Source of the DNA: Nitrosopumilales archaeon
GTDB lineage: Archaea > Thermoproteota > Nitrososphaeria > Nitrososphaerales > Nitrososphaeraceae
DNA length: 64,000 bases
Direction: 5' to 3'
Assembly: GCA_044507735.1 (NCBI GenBank)
Contig: JBIQJB010000007.1
Span: forward strand, 1-64,000
The notes beneath the pieces are model-generated. The model saw only the letters and a program-made list of their open reading frames with translations. It was not told where the DNA came from and ran no database searches. Both the position numbers and the translations under genes were made by a program. Below, in pieces: positions 7,879-22,033 of the stretch. Numbering within the stretch: position 1 is the stretch's first letter; each line of letters starts with the position of its first letter.

Positions 7879-9195
7879 CTAGGCAAGCTGCTGCTGTTGG
7901 TGGAATTCTGCCTTTTCGAGGCCGTACCTCTGCAGCGGCTTTGTTAGATGCCTGTGGGCCTTGGGTGTAGGAACATAGAGGCCTGCCTTGATTGCACGCT
8001 CCCTTGGAACCGTGATTTTCTTTGCGCCCGGGTCCCTGTGCTTGCATTTGTCGCACTGGTAGCCCTTGTTCTTGCCTTCTGACTTCATGCGCTTGCCGCA
8101 CATCTTGCACAGCGGATTCATCAGATCAAAAGCAGGCGCCAGCTCTTTCACCAAAAGATATTCCACGTTCAAGATCTTGGGGTGTTTTGTGGTCCCCTTC
8201 CTGACGCCTACTCCTATCTCGATAAAGTCGCCGGCTTCAAGACCGGCCGCTATTCCTGCCAGGCCAGTCGGCTCGTATACCGCTGCTGGCATCTCCGCAC
8301 CATCTTGTTCTACCATGAAAATCACGTGTCCTCCCTCCATCGCATGTGGCTTGCTTGCGACCCTGCACCGGACATAACCTGCAGTGTACGCCTTGGCCCC
8401 TGCAATTCTGATCTCGTTCTGCAGGTGCATGTTGGTTCCCTGGTTTGAGCGGAAAACAGTCCAGCCGTCCAGCTCTTCCTCGGGCTGCAGCGCAGCCAAT
8501 GCCGAGGTCACTATCTCGGGGGTCTCCCCCCTCACGCCAAAGAACACCGGGTCAGGCCCATGGGGCGCAACGAGCACCCTGTCGTGACTCTTGTCATAGT
8601 TGTTGAAGGTGTAAGGAAAAGTGTCTGCGCTGAATTTCACAACGCGCTCTTTGTTCACCATGCGCGGCGTGCCGCAGTTCTCCAATTTGCGATAGGCTAT
8701 CAACTCAAAGGTGTGGTCGCCCTGAAGCAGGCAGCCCATTGCGCCGAGGGAGCCTACGAGCCCCTGGCCGTTGCCAAGAGTGAAATACCGGACGCCGGCC
8801 GCCTTGGCCACCTTTTCAGCCATCTGTCTGCTCAACACATTGCACATCGCCATGGCGCTGAAACTTTGCAGCTCGGCCGGAATCTGATCCGCCTCCAAGA
8901 ACGCGATTCCCGGGTTTGCGCCGCCGCCAACGGCAGAGCCCTCTTCTACTGCCTGCCTGACATAGTCGATGACCCTGCCTACATCTTGCACTTGCAGCCG
9001 CAGGCAGACTGCGCCATTGCCCCTCGTCTTCCAAGGGATGTTGGGATTGAGCCTGATCAAGAGTGGGTAGTCAACAAGCCTTGCCCCCTCTTCCTTTTTG
9101 AGGTGCTCGGCTACCTTGAACGCAAGGTGTGTGGTGCACCTGCCGGCGCGAGAATCAGTGTCATCAAATGCAATGTGGAGCGTCTGCATGTGCAC
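7879..9195 (-). CDS. tiaS: tRNA(Ile2) agmatinylcytidine synthetase TiaS
   Basis: DDTDS..GRCTT, RLNPNIPWKTRGNGAV, PHGPDPVFFGVRG, RSNQGT, C-terminal Zn ribbon and RHLTKP. Confidence 0.95.
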   Translation of the reverse strand: MHMQTLHIAFDDTDSRAGRCTTHLAFKVAEHLKKEEGARLVDYPLLIRLNPNIPWKTRGNGAVCLRLQVQDVGRVIDYVRQAVEEGSAVGGGANPGIAFLEADQIPAELQSFSAMAMCNVLSRQMAEKVAKAAGVRYFTLGNGQGLVGSLGAMGCLLQGDHTFELIAYRKLENCGTPRMVNKERVVKFSADTFPYTFNNYDKSHDRVLVAPHGPDPVFFGVRGETPEIVTSALAALQPEEELDGWTVFRSNQGTNMHLQNEIRIAGAKAYTAGYVRCRVASKPHAMEGGHVIFMVEQDGAEMPAAVYEPTGLAGIAAGLEAGDFIEIGVGVRKGTTKHPKILNVEYLLVKELAPAFDLMNPLCKMCGKRMKSEGKNKGYQCDKCKHRDPGAKKITVPRERAIKAGLYVPTPKAHRHLTKPLQRYGLEKAEFHQQQQLA

Positions 9196-14872: not shown

Positions 14873-16036
14873 TTAGCTTCTGGGGTATTGCGTCCAGCTG
14901 ACCTTCTTTCTTCTTTCTTTATTATTTTTCTCGTCTTCCGCCGGCTTTCTCATTAGAAAGAGGTACTTGAAGCCGCGCAGATAAAAGTTGAAGCGCAATG
15001 CGCGGCTGTGCCAGATGCCGGTGTTCGATGTCTGGCTTCTCCTTGCCACGCAAATGATGTCGACGGTGTCGAAATACTTGCAGAGGCCGTCATAGACGTA
15101 AAAGCCGACTGGCGTGAACTTTTTCTTTACCCATTGGTCCCCTATCAGCCAGCCAAGAACCTTTCCAGGCTTCAATACCCTGTGACATTCGGCCATCACC
15201 ATGTCGAGGGCCTTGTAAAACTCGTCGCTTTCAGCGGAAAGCTTGCCGATGTTGTCCTGCTGGTCGTTGTAGTCGATGTTGTCGCCGTACGGCGAATCGA
15301 TGAACACCATGTCCACGCTCTCGTCGGCAAGTGGAATCTTGCGCGCATCGTTCTGCTTGATGTCCGGCCTTGTCGGCGATATGTCAAAGGCAATGCACCT
15401 GCGGCCCTCTTCTTGGCACACGTCGATGGTAGTGCCGCTGCCGGCCATCGGGTCAAGCACAAGGTCGCCCGGCTCTGTATAGCGCTTGACCATGTTGTAA
15501 ATTACAAAAGCAGGGGTAACGCCGGCGTACTTGTTGCTGCCCTTTTGCGTCTTGCCATAGCTCTGCCTGGGATAATCCCAGAGGGTGGTAGACTCGAGTC
15601 TGGGCTTATCCTCGGCATCAGTAGCGATCTTTCTTGCTGCCTTGAGCTTGTTGCTGCCTGGGTCCTCCAGATATCGAGAAAGGGAGTGCGCGAGTTCGCC
15701 GTCCAGAGCGTCGCGCCAGTTGCTAACACCTATTGTGGACAGGATCTTTTTTGCTCCTGTAATTGAATGCACAGCGCCGTTCTGTGACACTCGAACCTGA
15801 TACGGGTACCTGCCTTTCCATGCTTCCGGTACGATGTCTTTTGCACCGTCGGACTTGGCACGGAATGTTCCGTAGAGCGTATCTGTGTCTAGGTTGAGCA
15901 GAAAGAGCAGGTCGCCCTTCTTTATCTTGAGGACATTCTCGCCATATATCCTGCCTGCAGCAAAGAGCATCCTGTCAAAGCATTCCCGTTCGCTCTTGCT
16001 TGTACATGCGAAAATGTGCCCGGCCGCCTGCCCCAT
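14873..16036 (-). CDS. DCD (PUA-like) domain fused to an amino-methyltransferase (N4C/N6A type)
   Basis: N-term GHIFAC..ECFDRMLF..IKKGDLLFLLN..LYGTFRA..AW..YPYQVRV (DCD); VLDPMAGSGTT (motif I) followed by VFIDSPY (motif IV). Confidence 0.8.
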   Translation of the reverse strand: MGQAAGHIFACTSKSERECFDRMLFAAGRIYGENVLKIKKGDLLFLLNLDTDTLYGTFRAKSDGAKDIVPEAWKGRYPYQVRVSQNGAVHSITGAKKILSTIGVSNWRDALDGELAHSLSRYLEDPGSNKLKAARKIATDAEDKPRLESTTLWDYPRQSYGKTQKGSNKYAGVTPAFVIYNMVKRYTEPGDLVLDPMAGSGTTIDVCQEEGRRCIAFDISPTRPDIKQNDARKIPLADESVDMVFIDSPYGDNIDYNDQQDNIGKLSAESDEFYKALDMVMAECHRVLKPGKVLGWLIGDQWVKKKFTPVGFYVYDGLCKYFDTVDIICVARRSQTSNTGIWHSRALRFNFYLRGFKYLFLMRKPAEDEKNNKERRKKVSWTQYPRS

Positions 16037-16357
16037 GATGCAAGTTGGCAGTTTGGCAGTACTTAAAAATATTTAGATGCTATCAATGACCTGCCAAGTC
16101 ACAATCGTTGTCCTGAATGTCATAGGGCAATGGGGACCGTGCTCAGGCCACGTCACTCAGATTTTATCGGGCTATCAAGACAGCAGCAAAAGGTGCCGCA
16201 ATGCAGTCTCTATCTACATGAGAATTTTGATTCCCCTGATGGTAAACAAGTCCATCCCTCATCTACCTCCAAAGAATATGTGGGGCTTTTCCTGTTTTCT
16301 CTGCTTTTCGTGAATGCCAAACCTTTTACGTTACCAGTGCGTATATTACTACGCCAT

Positions 16358-16537
16358 ATGACACTCTGCTACCTTTGTAACATGCGTACTGCAGCAATGG
16401 ACTGCCCTGAATGCAAGAGGCCTGTTTGCAAAAAGTGCACAAAGGACTTTCCGTTTTCAAGGAGCGCGTGTCTGGAATGCGCTGCCAGCATCAAAACGGG
16501 CCTCGGCGGAATAAGAAAGGACGAAGAGATCTTTTAG
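16358..16537 (+). CDS. Small Cys-rich zinc-finger protein (59 aa)
   Basis: MTLCYLC..DCPECKRPVCKKC..ACLEC; the internal ATG of ORF 16130..16537 is the plausible start. Confidence 0.75.
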   Translation: MTLCYLCNMRTAAMDCPECKRPVCKKCTKDFPFSRSACLECAASIKTGLGGIRKDEEIF

Positions 16538-18855: not shown

Positions 18856-20865
18856 TTATTTCCTCAGAGAGCTGAAAAAGATGTACAGTATCGCTATTAT
18901 CTCGAACCTGCCAACTATCATGTTTGCAGTCAGCATCAGCTTTGAAACTGCGTCAAGCTGCAGCGAAGTTATCCCTACGCTTGTGCCTGTCGTCGAAAGT
19001 GCCGAGACTGACTCAAACAGGCCGTCCTCAAAGCTCCTGCCGGTGTTATAGCTCAATACAGATCCGGTCAATATGGAGATGCCGATAAAGAGCCCGGTTA
19101 CGAGCAGGATCTCCCTCACCAGTTTTATGCTCAGCACCTCTTTGATCACCTGAAATAGCTCGCCCTGCTTCTCCAGGATTTCCTTGATATCGCGGATGCG
19201 GTAGTAGTATCTTTCCGTCATGTCCCGCATACCGCCGTCCTCGGAGCTTCTGTGAGGGTTTGCGGTGAACGAAATCGAGCTGTATGTTTCCTGACCTGGT
19301 GTGAAGGACTCGTGGTGCATCTCCTCTTCCTCGCTCCTCTTTTTTCCAATCCTCTTTGCAAACTCCTGATACAGGATGAGGAAACGGCCCACCTTGATGC
19401 CGCCTGCTGTAGAGAATGCGGTTCCGCCTACCAGCATTGTGGCTATCAAGAATCCCTTGGCGGCCGGCGGAACTGCAGACATGTCTATGTACTGGAACCC
19501 TGTGGTGGTAGACGCGCTTATTGTATGGAATGCAGCCGTTCCAATGTCAATACCCGGGATCAATAGGTAGAGGATGGGGACCGAGGCAGCCATCATTATA
19601 AGATAAACTGTTACCTCCGGCCCGAGCGTCTTTTTGCTGATAAGGCCCTTCTTGCTGAAAATGTAGTAGTGGAAAGCAAATGGAAGAGCTGATAGGATCA
19701 TGCCCGCACTGACTATCATCAGGAAATACAGGTGGTCCGGCGAAACAAGGTTCGACGTTGGAGCAAAGCCTCCACCAGTTATGCTAGAGAGGATTGCCGC
19801 AACCGAATAGAGATCCCCTATCTCCTCTGCGGACATGAGCAGGAGCACCAGTATGATCGTATACACCGAAAATATCCCGACCAGCGTTACGATGAACTCC
19901 TTTAGGCGCATCATGCCACCGCCGATCACGCTCTTCCACGCGCTCAGCTTTTCCTCAGGGAAGAAGAGGATCATAACCAGATACACAAAAGAAAGGCCGC
20001 CGACCCATTGCGTATATGACCGGTAAAAATTAAAGCTCTGCGGAAGGTTCTCCGGTTGCGTTATTGTTGAAAGCCCGGTGGTGGTAAATCCAGAGGCACT
20101 TTCAAACAGGCTGTTGACAAAGAGCGAGCCGGCATCCATGTCGGGAGCAAAAGGATTGAGGTAAATGTATGGAAGTGAGCCGAAAAGCGACATCACGATA
20201 AAGCTTGCCACTATGAAGATTGAGGCCTGCTTCAGGTTCATCTGACCCTTCTCGCCGTACGCCATCAGGAAAAACCCGGTAAACGAGAGACCTACAACCT
20301 CAAGATAGACGCCCGTAATGTTTCCGGCCTCGCCAAGGGCTGTACCAACCAGAGCCGGCACTACCAGCAGCACTGCAGAGAACTGAAGAAGCACACCGAG
20401 GTTGCCCAGAACCGGCTTGTACTGTATCTTGAACGTGTTCTTGGCCCGTGCTAGTGTTCTTTCCAGCACCGACTTGCTGATTGCGTCTGCCAGCGACCGC
20501 TGCGTAACTATTCCAATCACGCCAGTGTCGTTGGTCACGGGAACGCGCTTTATCTTGTTCACCCGCATAAGCTGCAGCGCCTGTTTGACTGTTCCTGCCG
20601 ACGACATTGTCACTAGAGGTGACGACATGATCGACTTGATCGCAGTCATCTTGGAATCTTCGCCCTTGAGCACCACCCTTTCGACGACGTCACTGTTGGT
20701 GACGATTCCAACCGGGGACCCGCCTCTTGTCACAATGATCGAGTCAAGCTTTTGCTCCTGCATCTGCTCGACTGCCGTAGCGACAGTCGCCTCTTCTTCC
20801 AGAGTCAGGAAATGCCTCTCAATGTATGTGAGAGCTAGCCTTTCTAGAACGTCTTGATGCTGCAC
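18856..20865 (-). CDS. trkH: TrkH-type K+ transporter with an N-terminal CBS domain pair
   Basis: CBS repeats (PVGIVT..D, RVPV..VIGIVT); pore motifs FESASGFTTTG, STTTGF, STAGGIK, SALSTTG and GRFEI. Confidence 0.9.
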   Translation of the reverse strand: MQHQDVLERLALTYIERHFLTLEEEATVATAVEQMQEQKLDSIIVTRGGSPVGIVTNSDVVERVVLKGEDSKMTAIKSIMSSPLVTMSSAGTVKQALQLMRVNKIKRVPVTNDTGVIGIVTQRSLADAISKSVLERTLARAKNTFKIQYKPVLGNLGVLLQFSAVLLVVPALVGTALGEAGNITGVYLEVVGLSFTGFFLMAYGEKGQMNLKQASIFIVASFIVMSLFGSLPYIYLNPFAPDMDAGSLFVNSLFESASGFTTTGLSTITQPENLPQSFNFYRSYTQWVGGLSFVYLVMILFFPEEKLSAWKSVIGGGMMRLKEFIVTLVGIFSVYTIILVLLLMSAEEIGDLYSVAAILSSITGGGFAPTSNLVSPDHLYFLMIVSAGMILSALPFAFHYYIFSKKGLISKKTLGPEVTVYLIMMAASVPILYLLIPGIDIGTAAFHTISASTTTGFQYIDMSAVPPAAKGFLIATMLVGGTAFSTAGGIKVGRFLILYQEFAKRIGKKRSEEEEMHHESFTPGQETYSSISFTANPHRSSEDGGMRDMTERYYYRIRDIKEILEKQGELFQVIKEVLSIKLVREILLVTGLFIGISILTGSVLSYNTGRSFEDGLFESVSALSTTGTSVGITSLQLDAVSKLMLTANMIVGRFEIIAILYIFFSSLRK

Positions 20866-21367: not shown

Positions 21368-22033
21368 TTGGCCATATACCGCTATACGTTCTACAAGAGC
21401 CCAAACATAGGCATCTTTGTCAAGACGAACGACACGCTGGTGCTCGTCCCACCTGGCTTTTCCGAGACAAAGTCGGAGAAGCTTGCCGACTACCTTCAGG
21501 TGAGCGAGGTACATACCTCGGTGGCCGGCACCCGATTACTTGGGCCAATGACAGTCATGAACAACAATGGCATCCTGTTGCCCTCCATAGCTTCTGACGA
21601 GGAGGTCGAGACCATCCGGCAGGCAAGCAAGCTCAACGTGGATCGGCTAAAGAGCCGGCTCACTGCGATAGGCAACCTCATTGTGGCAAACGACAACGGT
21701 GCCATTGTCTCCCCCCTTCTCAAAGGGGAGGTCAGCCATCAGGTGCAGGATGTCCTTGGAGTGCCTGCTCACACCATGGCAGTGGGCGGCTTTGTGCAGG
21801 CAGGGTCTATGATAGTGGCTACAAATGTAGGCGCAGCCGTGACTCCGAGGGCAAGCGAGGGAGAAGTCAAGCTAGTTTCTGAAATACTGCAGGTGCCGGC
21901 AGAGCCGGTGACTGTGAACAACGGCATGCCTTTCTTGTCGTCCGGTATAGTCGCAAACAGCAAGACAGTGATTGTAGGCACGCTTACAACCGGCCCCGAG
22001 CTTATTATGATGAGCAGGGTCTTTAACGCATGA
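21368..22033 (+). CDS. eif6: Translation initiation factor 6 (aIF6)
   Basis: SPNIGIF, NNNGILLP, GNLIVAND, TVNNG and TTGPEL motifs. Confidence 0.93.
   Translation: MAIYRYTFYKSPNIGIFVKTNDTLVLVPPGFSETKSEKLADYLQVSEVHTSVAGTRLLGPMTVMNNNGILLPSIASDEEVETIRQASKLNVDRLKSRLTAIGNLIVANDNGAIVSPLLKGEVSHQVQDVLGVPAHTMAVGGFVQAGSMIVATNVGAAVTPRASEGEVKLVSEILQVPAEPVTVNNGMPFLSSGIVANSKTVIVGTLTTGPELIMMSRVFNA

Follow-up and report, generated by a model that had tools for sequence, protein, structure and literature searches.

The gene at 14873..16036 on the minus strand of a 64,000-nucleotide (nt) stretch of DNA (hereafter the window, positions 1 to 64,000 of contig JBIQJB010000007.1 in assembly GCA_044507735.1 from a Nitrosopumilales archaeon of the GTDB family Nitrososphaeraceae) encodes a protein of 387 amino acids (aa), in which an N-terminal DCD domain is fused to an amino-methyltransferase, and its open reading frame (ORF) lies where the first-pass annotation, made from the letters of the window, had placed it. 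On the reading preferred here, the gene probably encodes a solitary type II DNA amino-methyltransferase that came from a mobile restriction-modification (R-M) cassette and was domesticated, with the DCD domain reading a base in DNA. Established here are the domain architecture and fold, the origin in an R-M cassette, the lack of the nuclease and the selection acting on both domains. The architecture and the reader-writer idea were already published in 2020 by Bell, Wolf and Koonin (BMC Biol 18:159, PMC7641849); the present analysis adds the family to which the partner nuclease belongs, the permutation of the core, natural DCD-less controls and a Nitrososphaera lineage with a selected orphan.

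The amino-methyltransferase call was confirmed, an intact PF01555 (N6_N4_Mtase) enzyme being fused to the DCD domain. The Pfam match was well above the cut-off (E 1.3e-24, 87.9 bits, cut-off 26.7) and was made in two stretches, the best of which aligned residues 144-223 with positions 135-215 of the 221 profile positions, i.e. with the C-terminal part of the profile; together with motifs I and IV it places the core among the N6/N4 amino-methyltransferases. The PADLOC type II model MTase_II (PDLC03376) was colinear with residues 143-364. Motif I (residues 195-203) stands ahead of an atypical motif IV, DSPY (residues 247-250), as had been noted from the letters alone, and D195, G199, S200, G201 and T202 of motif I and D247, P249 and Y250 of motif IV were near-invariant in 84 sequences. 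The motif IV position is occupied by DPPY in the distant DCD-less relatives P0130 and P0132. The W-x-x-Y-x-R ending of the C-terminal tail was kept in the alignment and the remainder was variable.

The top PDB sequence matches of the core were DNA methyltransferases (2zie, RsrI, N4C methyltransferases, CcrM and PvuII), and the best ones belong to the beta class of N4/N6 enzymes (TTHA0409/2zie, M.RsrI, CcrM, M.PvuII and rotifer N4CMT), with which the motif I region, the segment preceding it and the surroundings of motif IV can be aligned. The beta-class arrangement, in which the IV-VIII block precedes the X-I-III block with the target-recognition domain between them, was not found in the core. 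On TTHA0409 (2zie) the two halves aligned in swapped order, query residues 229-308 with chain residues 27-108 and query residues 135-235 with chain residues 180-282, because of which the core is read as a circular permutation of the beta-class arrangement. Unlike the beta-class enzymes, it combines this permuted order with DSPY and an N-terminal DCD domain and has no internal target-recognition insert. The order of motif I before motif IV is what we take to be the gamma-like order of the Malone classification. By Foldseek, Rossmann methyltransferases of canonical order such as Trm11 aligned over at least 200 columns and 2zie over 142 only.

Related loci were collected by scanning one genome per prokaryotic species, and the best 80 of 288 relatives were used, all of them full-length fusions with 54-90% identity. 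Among these best 80, archaeal hosts were Nitrososphaera, Nitrosopolaris, Bathyarchaeia, Archaeoglobales, Thermoplasmata, Micrarchaeota, Caldarchaeum, Alkanophaga, Baldrarchaeota and one Asgard archaeon, and bacterial hosts were Thermodesulfovibrio/Nitrospirae, Deltaproteobacteria, Syntrophorhabdaceae and Dehalococcoidia/Chloroflexota. Such a spread over very distant archaea and bacteria indicates horizontal transfer. Among 201 genomes of the class, a match including the DCD domain was found only in the window's genome (G000), in G184 of the same genus (85% identical) and in G122 of another genus of the family (66% identical). Only 3 nt separate the G122 orthologue from a downstream gene for a 239-aa protein with a PF18643 match (RE_BsaWI, E 1e-33), and a serine recombinase (resolvase) lies 2 kb from this methyltransferase-nuclease pair.

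Nuclease linkage was determined by tblastn with the G122 nuclease on the 80 loci. The nuclease was matched in 0/34 loci of the Nitrososphaera clade (at least 69.5% identity to the query), of which 33 had at least 900 nt downstream and one (L110) had 364 nt. Outside this orphan clade, a BsaWI-family nuclease stood directly downstream in 33 of 46 loci. A single near-full-length nuclease, directly downstream on the same strand with a gap of 6-105 nt, was present in 25/46 (in L109 as a 103-aa open frame only), a match in two pieces in 3/46, a divergent copy of about 35% identity in 4/46, a copy cut by the contig end in 1/46 (L073), a weak convergent BsaWI-like gene below the cut-off (Pfam E 3e-4) in 1/46 (L101), fragments only in 2/46 (L055 and L056) and no match in 9/46; one locus (L108) was not assessable. 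When the 1.5 kb downstream were searched with a hidden Markov model (HMM) of the nuclease, no relic was found in the 34 clade loci or in the window, and only the fragments of L055 and L056, the sister-group loci of the orphan clade, were recovered.

Three of these loci are described for their surroundings. In an Archaeoglobales metagenome-assembled genome (MAG; L084, 7664-8899, minus strand), a DCD-methyltransferase without a nuclease is closely followed by a gene for S-adenosylhomocysteine hydrolase, with a 135-aa ORF lacking a family match between the two; this may be a second, independent orphan copy beside methyl-cycle metabolism. In a Thermodesulfovibrio MAG (L051, 3572-5196, plus strand), a pair of an R.HinP1I-family nuclease and an ordinary beta-class PF01555 methyltransferase lies directly upstream of the DCD-methyltransferase/BsaWI-like pair and forms a small R-M island with it. 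In a Nitrososphaera MAG (L066, 6946-8118, plus strand), a copy that lacks the nuclease and falls outside the main orphan clade has a SIR2-like (PF13289) gene about 1 kb downstream.

The genome of the window (2.33 Mb, 55 contigs, 97% complete) contains one full-length copy of the gene, and four further methyltransferase genes match the query only around motif I. No PF18643 match was found in this whole genome, and an HMM built from 29 partner nucleases gave a best E of 1.2 across its 31,045 open frames, which extends the first-pass annotation's remark of no restriction nuclease nearby from the neighbourhood to the genome. A cognate nuclease, as required of a type II R-M system, was thus found neither adjacent to the window gene nor elsewhere in its genome. 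When the neighbours and the G122 nuclease were scanned with PADLOC, no defence-family match was obtained.

In a FastTree phylogeny of 82 full-length proteins, the nuclease-less Nitrososphaera sequences, the window and G184 grouped in a single clade of 36 tips, which lies within a wider set of bacterial and archaeal sequences linked to a nuclease and had a support of 0.939 in the core-domain tree; its members are 63-66% identical to the nuclease-linked enzymes. Within the clade, the ratio of non-synonymous to synonymous substitution rates (dN/dS) was estimated by the Nei-Gojobori method over about 157 non-independent pairs with dS of 0.15-1.5. The median was lowest in the methyltransferase core (0.075), followed by the DCD domain (0.145), the linker (0.32) and the tail (0.38). 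Because of the values for the DCD domain and the core, both domains are still under purifying selection after the loss of the nuclease. The dS at which these ratios were obtained was about 0.9; the frame was intact in 36/36 clade sequences, and the catalytic motifs were invariant. The absence of a nuclease, vertical inheritance and purifying selection are the properties of a persistent (domesticated) orphan methyltransferase and are shown by this gene, with the caveat that one genome of the same genus, G200, is without it.

A reading of the gene as the decaying, functionless remnant of a dead R-M system is scarcely credible in view of these intact frames, of dN/dS as low as 0.075-0.145 in the two domains and of the invariant motifs, although the nuclease is gone, many relatives lack the gene and RNA evidence is negligible; one RNA run, with a tenth of the sampled words, gave a 152-nt contig at 14757-14908 and a 33-nt partial match, which is too little for a claim of transcription. 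In the history that fits best, the ancestral unit was a mobile two-gene cassette of a DCD-methyltransferase followed by a BsaWI/CCGG-family nuclease. The nuclease would have been lost in the ancestor of one Nitrososphaera clade, and the methyltransferase would have been kept at a fixed chromosomal position by vertical inheritance with selection on both domains.

DNA is very probably the substrate, since the enzyme descends from a mobile type II R-M cassette, and of the "DNA or RNA" of the first-pass annotation the DNA part stood and tRNA or other RNA became unlikely. The alternative that the enzyme of the orphan lineage methylates tRNA or rRNA, with the DCD domain as an RNA-binding PUA-like domain, draws on the top Foldseek matches, which are Trm11 m2G10 tRNA methyltransferases, on weak motif-IV matches to UPF0020 and TIGR01177 and on the binding of RNA by YTH domains. 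It is nevertheless very improbable: all significant PDB sequence matches were DNA methyltransferases, the orphans remain 63-66% identical to nuclease-linked enzymes with the core as their most constrained part, and no THUMP domain was found in the query by Pfam, which leaves the likeness to Trm11/Trm14 as one of fold and topology. The NCBIfam models, for DNA and RNA methyltransferases alike, all scored far below their cut-offs, with 22.1 bits against 316.55 for TIGR01177 and 11.8 against 280 for Trm14.

For the target site, the partner nucleases of the relatives were compared. The best PDB sequence match of the G122 nuclease was BsaWI, at a weak E of 0.18; its SK...RER segment aligns with K165 and R169-D170-R171 of BsaWI and is kept in 28 of 29 partner nucleases. 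In BsaWI, K165 is the catalytic lysine, and the R-(D/E)R motif reads the CCGG tetranucleotide across the CCGG family, as stated in the available text of the structural report (PMC4652773). The relatives' nucleases share with this family the PF18643 match, the catalytic lysine and the contiguous R-E-R; the window differs in having no nuclease. Because the relatives' partner nucleases keep the lysine and the CCGG-reading R-E-R motif, N4-methylcytosine (m4C) at a site with a CCGG core is predicted as the product, at about even chances. S-adenosylmethionine (AdoMet) would be bound by motif I of the C-terminal core, and an exocyclic amino group would be methylated through the DSPY of motif IV, with m4C in the CCGG-core site as the likely product. 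In the part of a review available (PMC11033074), archaeal CCGG methyltransferases (M.MjaVI and two putative enzymes) are tabulated as m4C; the window enzyme would resemble these in its predicted site and base, m4C being the simplest product for an amino-methyltransferase that guards a CCGG core. In the window's genome, the most depleted palindromes were CGCGCG (observed/expected ratio (O/E) 0.61), TATA (0.71), CTCGAG (0.74), CGGCCG (0.76) and GGCC (0.82).

The DCD pattern seen earlier at the N-terminus was identified by Pfam as PF10539 (Dev_Cell_Death) at residues 5-90 (E 7.9e-19, 68.1 bits, cut-off 27.8), in agreement with the genome scan; profile positions 1-89 of 126 were covered by the match and the last third was unmatched. 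The full-length AlphaFold2 model, with 84 aligned sequences as input, had a mean predicted local distance difference test score (pLDDT) of 91.6, falling to about 70 near residue 135 in the linker, and a predicted template modelling score (pTM) of 0.87, and residues 1-135 modelled alone had a pLDDT of 90.6. The order of secondary-structure elements in the modelled domain (strand 6-11, helix 13-22, strand 24-27, helix 29-36 and strands 43-48, 53-60 and 79-93) agreed with the published description of the DCD domain. Compared with PDB by Foldseek, the domain model matched the YTH domains of Mmi1, MRB1, Pho92, YTHDF2 and YTHDC1 (TM-score 0.63-0.70, E from 1e-5), the archaeal EVE-like proteins MJECL36 and PH1033, the reader domain of VcaM4I, and the ASCH, THYN1 and McrB-N folds; by the EVE, YTH and ASCH matches, the earlier assignment of the N-terminus to the PUA-like domains holds at the level of fold.

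At the level of sequence, no YTH or EVE model was matched by the query in the Pfam scan at E up to 1, and no PDB sequence relationship to the DCD domain was detected for the YTH, EVE and ASCH readers or the N-domain modules of VcaM4I and McrB. In modification-dependent nucleases such as VcaM4I and McrB the effector of the reader is a nuclease, whereas in the window gene it is a writer. Near-invariant DCD residues include F9, C11, E18, F25, Y31, F45, N48, F58, W73, Y77, P78, Y79 and Q80, among which F25, W73, Y77 and Y79 are guessed to be candidate cage residues. A sequence-level mapping of the domain onto the methyl-binding cages of YTH and EVE was dropped, the profile search of PDB having given a chance match only.

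Natural controls for the domain are provided by complete DCD-less cores (P0123, P0124, P0126, P0130 and P0132; 43-66% identity). A viral contig of 24 kb carries one such gene of 262 aa (62% identical), which overlaps the end of a gene for a BsaWI-like nuclease. The order on this archaeal-virus-like IMG/VR contig (L115, 1-937) is nuclease then methyltransferase, and a 711-aa ORF comes next. Because such complete cores exist, one of them paired with the nuclease, the core can serve the BsaWI-like nuclease family without the domain, and the idea that the N-terminal DCD domain is a needed part of the enzyme fails in relatives, where it is dispensable for the core. In the midpoint-rooted core tree, the DCD-less proteins fell outside a single DCD-bearing clade with one nested exception, so that the domain seems to have been gained once, at a later stage, and retained thereafter in mobile cassettes and orphans. 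The DCD-less relatives therefore argue against an essential target-recognition role and for an accessory one; on these comparisons the DCD domain is classed as an accessory and not as the catalytic or target-recognition core.

The topology of the protein gives some support to another view, in which the DCD domain is a DNA-binding or target-recognition clamp for unmodified DNA and no modification is read. The domain sits topologically where beta-class enzymes carry the target-recognition domain, since the permuted N-terminus precedes motif X and the C-terminus follows motif VIII, which are the ends that flank that domain; the core has no other large insert, and the pTM given above suggests fixed packing of the two domains. 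A clamp of this kind is unlikely all the same, because DCD-less cores, one of them with the same nuclease family, would recognise the target without it and because many of the closest folds (YTH, VcaM4I, THYN1 and McrB-N) are dedicated readers of modified bases.

Given the fold family, binding of a flipped or modified base in DNA is inferred as the most economical role of the DCD domain. Tentatively, and with less than even prospects, the domain may read a methylated base and so bias the enzyme toward hemimethylated DNA. As a PUA-like pocket domain, it would most likely bind the methyl group that the enzyme itself has placed on the parental strand, a ligand favoured because the domain is kept across hosts with unrelated methylomes, and it would hold the enzyme on DNA that is already marked. 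In eukaryotic maintenance methylation, the hemimethylated site is recognised by the SRA domain of UHRF1 and the other strand is methylated by DNMT1. The window gene likewise couples a PUA-like pocket domain to a DNA methyltransferase, which is a likeness of possible working and not of membership; unlike UHRF1/DNMT1 it is one polypeptide with an amino-methyltransferase instead of a C5 enzyme, and binding of hemimethylated DNA by the DCD domain is hypothetical. The fuller version by this analogy, a single-polypeptide maintenance methyltransferase in which the DCD domain captures the enzyme's own m4C (or N6-methyladenine) on the parental strand and the core methylates the daughter strand, is conceivable but doubtful.

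For the same architecture, Bell, Wolf and Koonin proposed, in the available portion of their paper (PMC7641849), supplementary methylation of modified DNA that is recognised by the DCD domain, and the added methyl would then shield the DNA from the adjacent nuclease of the relatives. Other marks for such a different, pre-existing modification are at hand, because orphan methyltransferases for GATC, GTAC, AGCT and CGCG are described in Nitrososphaerota (PMC10609329, as far as its available text goes) and four further methyltransferase-like matches occur in the window's genome. The proposal is distinctly improbable here: the cassette crosses very distant hosts with different methylomes while the DCD domain is kept at 54-90% overall identity, which fits an own mark better, and the partner belongs to the CCGG family of ordinary type II nucleases and is not modification-dependent.

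That the domain is instead a protein-interaction module for docking of a partner or for oligomerisation is very unlikely, the fold family consisting mostly of nucleic-acid readers. A plant DCD domain does bind PevD1 and CRY2 at micromolar or better affinity (available text of PMC13570309), but the domain is still selected after the loss of the nuclease, its one obvious partner; no gene was identified as a conserved partner, and the zinc-ribbon neighbour described below occurs without the methyltransferase.

Several results weigh against a domesticated DNA enzyme with a base-reading DCD domain. No YTH or EVE chain was found when the DCD profile was searched against PDB at E up to 10, the only hit being a chance match of E 1.7; in the papers found, no solved DCD structure and no nucleic-acid ligand demonstrated for any DCD domain were reported, and crystallisation of a plant DCD domain failed and the domain was treated as a protein-binding surface in the available part of a 2026 paper (PMC13570309). 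The DCD-less relatives indicate that the core is able to work without the domain. The best full-length structural neighbours of the protein are RNA methyltransferases of the same linear topology (Trm11, E 2e-8), and the trees, including those behind the orphan clade, were midpoint-rooted. The gene is patchy, being present in 2/14 other genomes of the family and missing from G200 of the same genus (98% complete). In G200, other genes lie between the zinc-ribbon ORF and the SpoIIM-like gene with no remnant of the methyltransferase (best tblastn E 1.3); the gene is therefore not essential. In the window's genome none of the other four-base palindromes (16 in all) exceeded CCGG in O/E (1.18), and values of 0.89-1.13 were obtained for the NCCGGN hexamers; such a lack of avoidance is consistent with the absent nuclease and is uninformative on specificity. 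An autoregulation sensing methylation through a promoter CCGG was rejected, as CCGG was present in the region -200..+30 of only 4/26 nuclease-linked loci and at no fixed position.

The features of the gene and of its divergent neighbour are collected in Table 1.

Table 1. Coordinates of the DCD-methyltransferase gene, its parts and the adjacent zinc-ribbon ORF in the window.
Feature	Coordinates	Strand	Basis or remark
Whole gene, DCD-methyltransferase fusion (P0001), including stop codon	14873..16036	-	ORF list and translation, 387 aa
DCD (PUA-like) domain, residues 1-110	15707..16036	-	PF10539, separate model, fold matches, dN/dS 0.145
Variable helical linker, residues 111-143	15608..15706	-	Gapped variable alignment, dN/dS 0.32, pLDDT dip
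Amino-methyltransferase core, residues 144-366, motif order X-I-II-III-IV-VIII	14939..15607	-	PF01555, PADLOC, PDB matches, dN/dS 0.075
Motif I, AdoMet-binding loop DPMAGSGTT, residues 195-203	15428..15454	-	Translation checked
Motif IV, catalytic DSPY, residues 247-250, family variant of DPPY	15287..15298	-	Translation checked
Basic C-terminal tail, residues 367-387, and stop codon	14873..14938	-	Variable alignment, dN/dS 0.38
Small zinc-ribbon/B-box-like ORF, divergent, upstream of the methyltransferase	16130..16537 (conserved part 16310-16534)	+	Resident neighbour

The flanking ORFs of the gene encode a secreted F5/8-type-C protein (downstream), a SpoIIM-like protein and small zinc-ribbon proteins. 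The zinc-ribbon ORF was found upstream in 31/31 orphan-clade loci that have at least 600 nt of upstream sequence, because of which the chromosomal position is stable, and this ORF is a resident neighbour that marks it. It is Cys-rich with 61-88% identity next to the orphan gene in Nitrososphaera, gives a weak B-box match in G184, and its start is probably internal, since the alignment with homologues begins only near residue 60. A role as functional partner was rejected, since G200 has this ORF without carrying the methyltransferase and since in G122 it sits on a different contig. The gene for TiaS (tRNA-Ile2 agmatidine synthetase, with all three Pfam domains) lies at 7879-9195 on the minus strand and that for eIF-6 at 21368-22033, and because of these the neighbourhood is ordinary chromosomal housekeeping. 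The GC content, described in the first-pass annotation as host-like, was roughly so but on the high side (0.532 for the gene against 0.486 for the genome, at the 93.8th percentile of same-size windows). In G184, a paralogue of the CBS-TrkH transporter of the window (18856-20865) was found as three matches with in-frame stops on the minus strand of contig C1 (G184:C1:2643317-2645305) and is apparently a pseudogene.

Among known systems, the fusions described by Bell, Wolf and Koonin (available part of PMC7641849) share with the window gene an N-terminal DCD domain on a Rossmann-fold methyltransferase and the same taxonomic bias toward archaea and thermophilic or anaerobic bacteria. These prokaryotic fusions are reported there as frequent and usually with a PD-(D/E)XK nuclease next to them, which is overlooked by the earlier statement that DCD is described mainly from plants. 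A nuclease stands directly downstream in relatives such as G122, whereas downstream of the window gene it is the F5/8-type-C gene that follows. Beyond that work, as far as its available text goes, the partner nuclease is here assigned to the BsaWI/CCGG family of type II, and purifying selection is demonstrated in the orphan lineage. The reader-writer proposal of the first-pass annotation is reasonable and is essentially the 2020 hypothesis, with its scope to be narrowed to DNA.

Nitrososphaerota are described as rich in persistent orphan m4C methyltransferases, the persistent orphans of the phylum include HG3 (GATC), HG10 (GTAC), HG19 (AGCT) and HG12 (CGCG), and the survey group HG21 of unknown site was present in 5/5 Nitrososphaera genomes, according to the available text of that survey (PMC10609329). 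The window gene, too, encodes a type II methyltransferase that persists in an archaeal lineage without a nuclease; it is patchier than those orphans (2/14 other genomes of the family) and carries a reader domain.

The family offers a compact, soluble-looking enzyme of 387 aa together with natural controls (DCD-less, nuclease-linked and orphan relatives), with which one can ask whether a bacterial-type methyltransferase comes to favour DNA that already bears a mark when it carries a reader domain. Without such an effect, the gene is just another solitary methyltransferase that an R-M system has left behind. With it, the retention of DCD domains in plants and other eukaryotes would be explained. 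If the enzyme acts as a single-polypeptide maintenance methyltransferase, host DNA would stay protected in the mobile cassette and incoming unmethylated phage DNA would seldom be methylated, and in Nitrososphaera, after the loss of the nuclease, the mark would be heritable and the enzyme would be kept as an epigenetic device in ammonia-oxidising archaea. A maintenance-type methyltransferase would thereby be added to prokaryotic epigenetics, in soil nitrifiers that have several persistent orphans.

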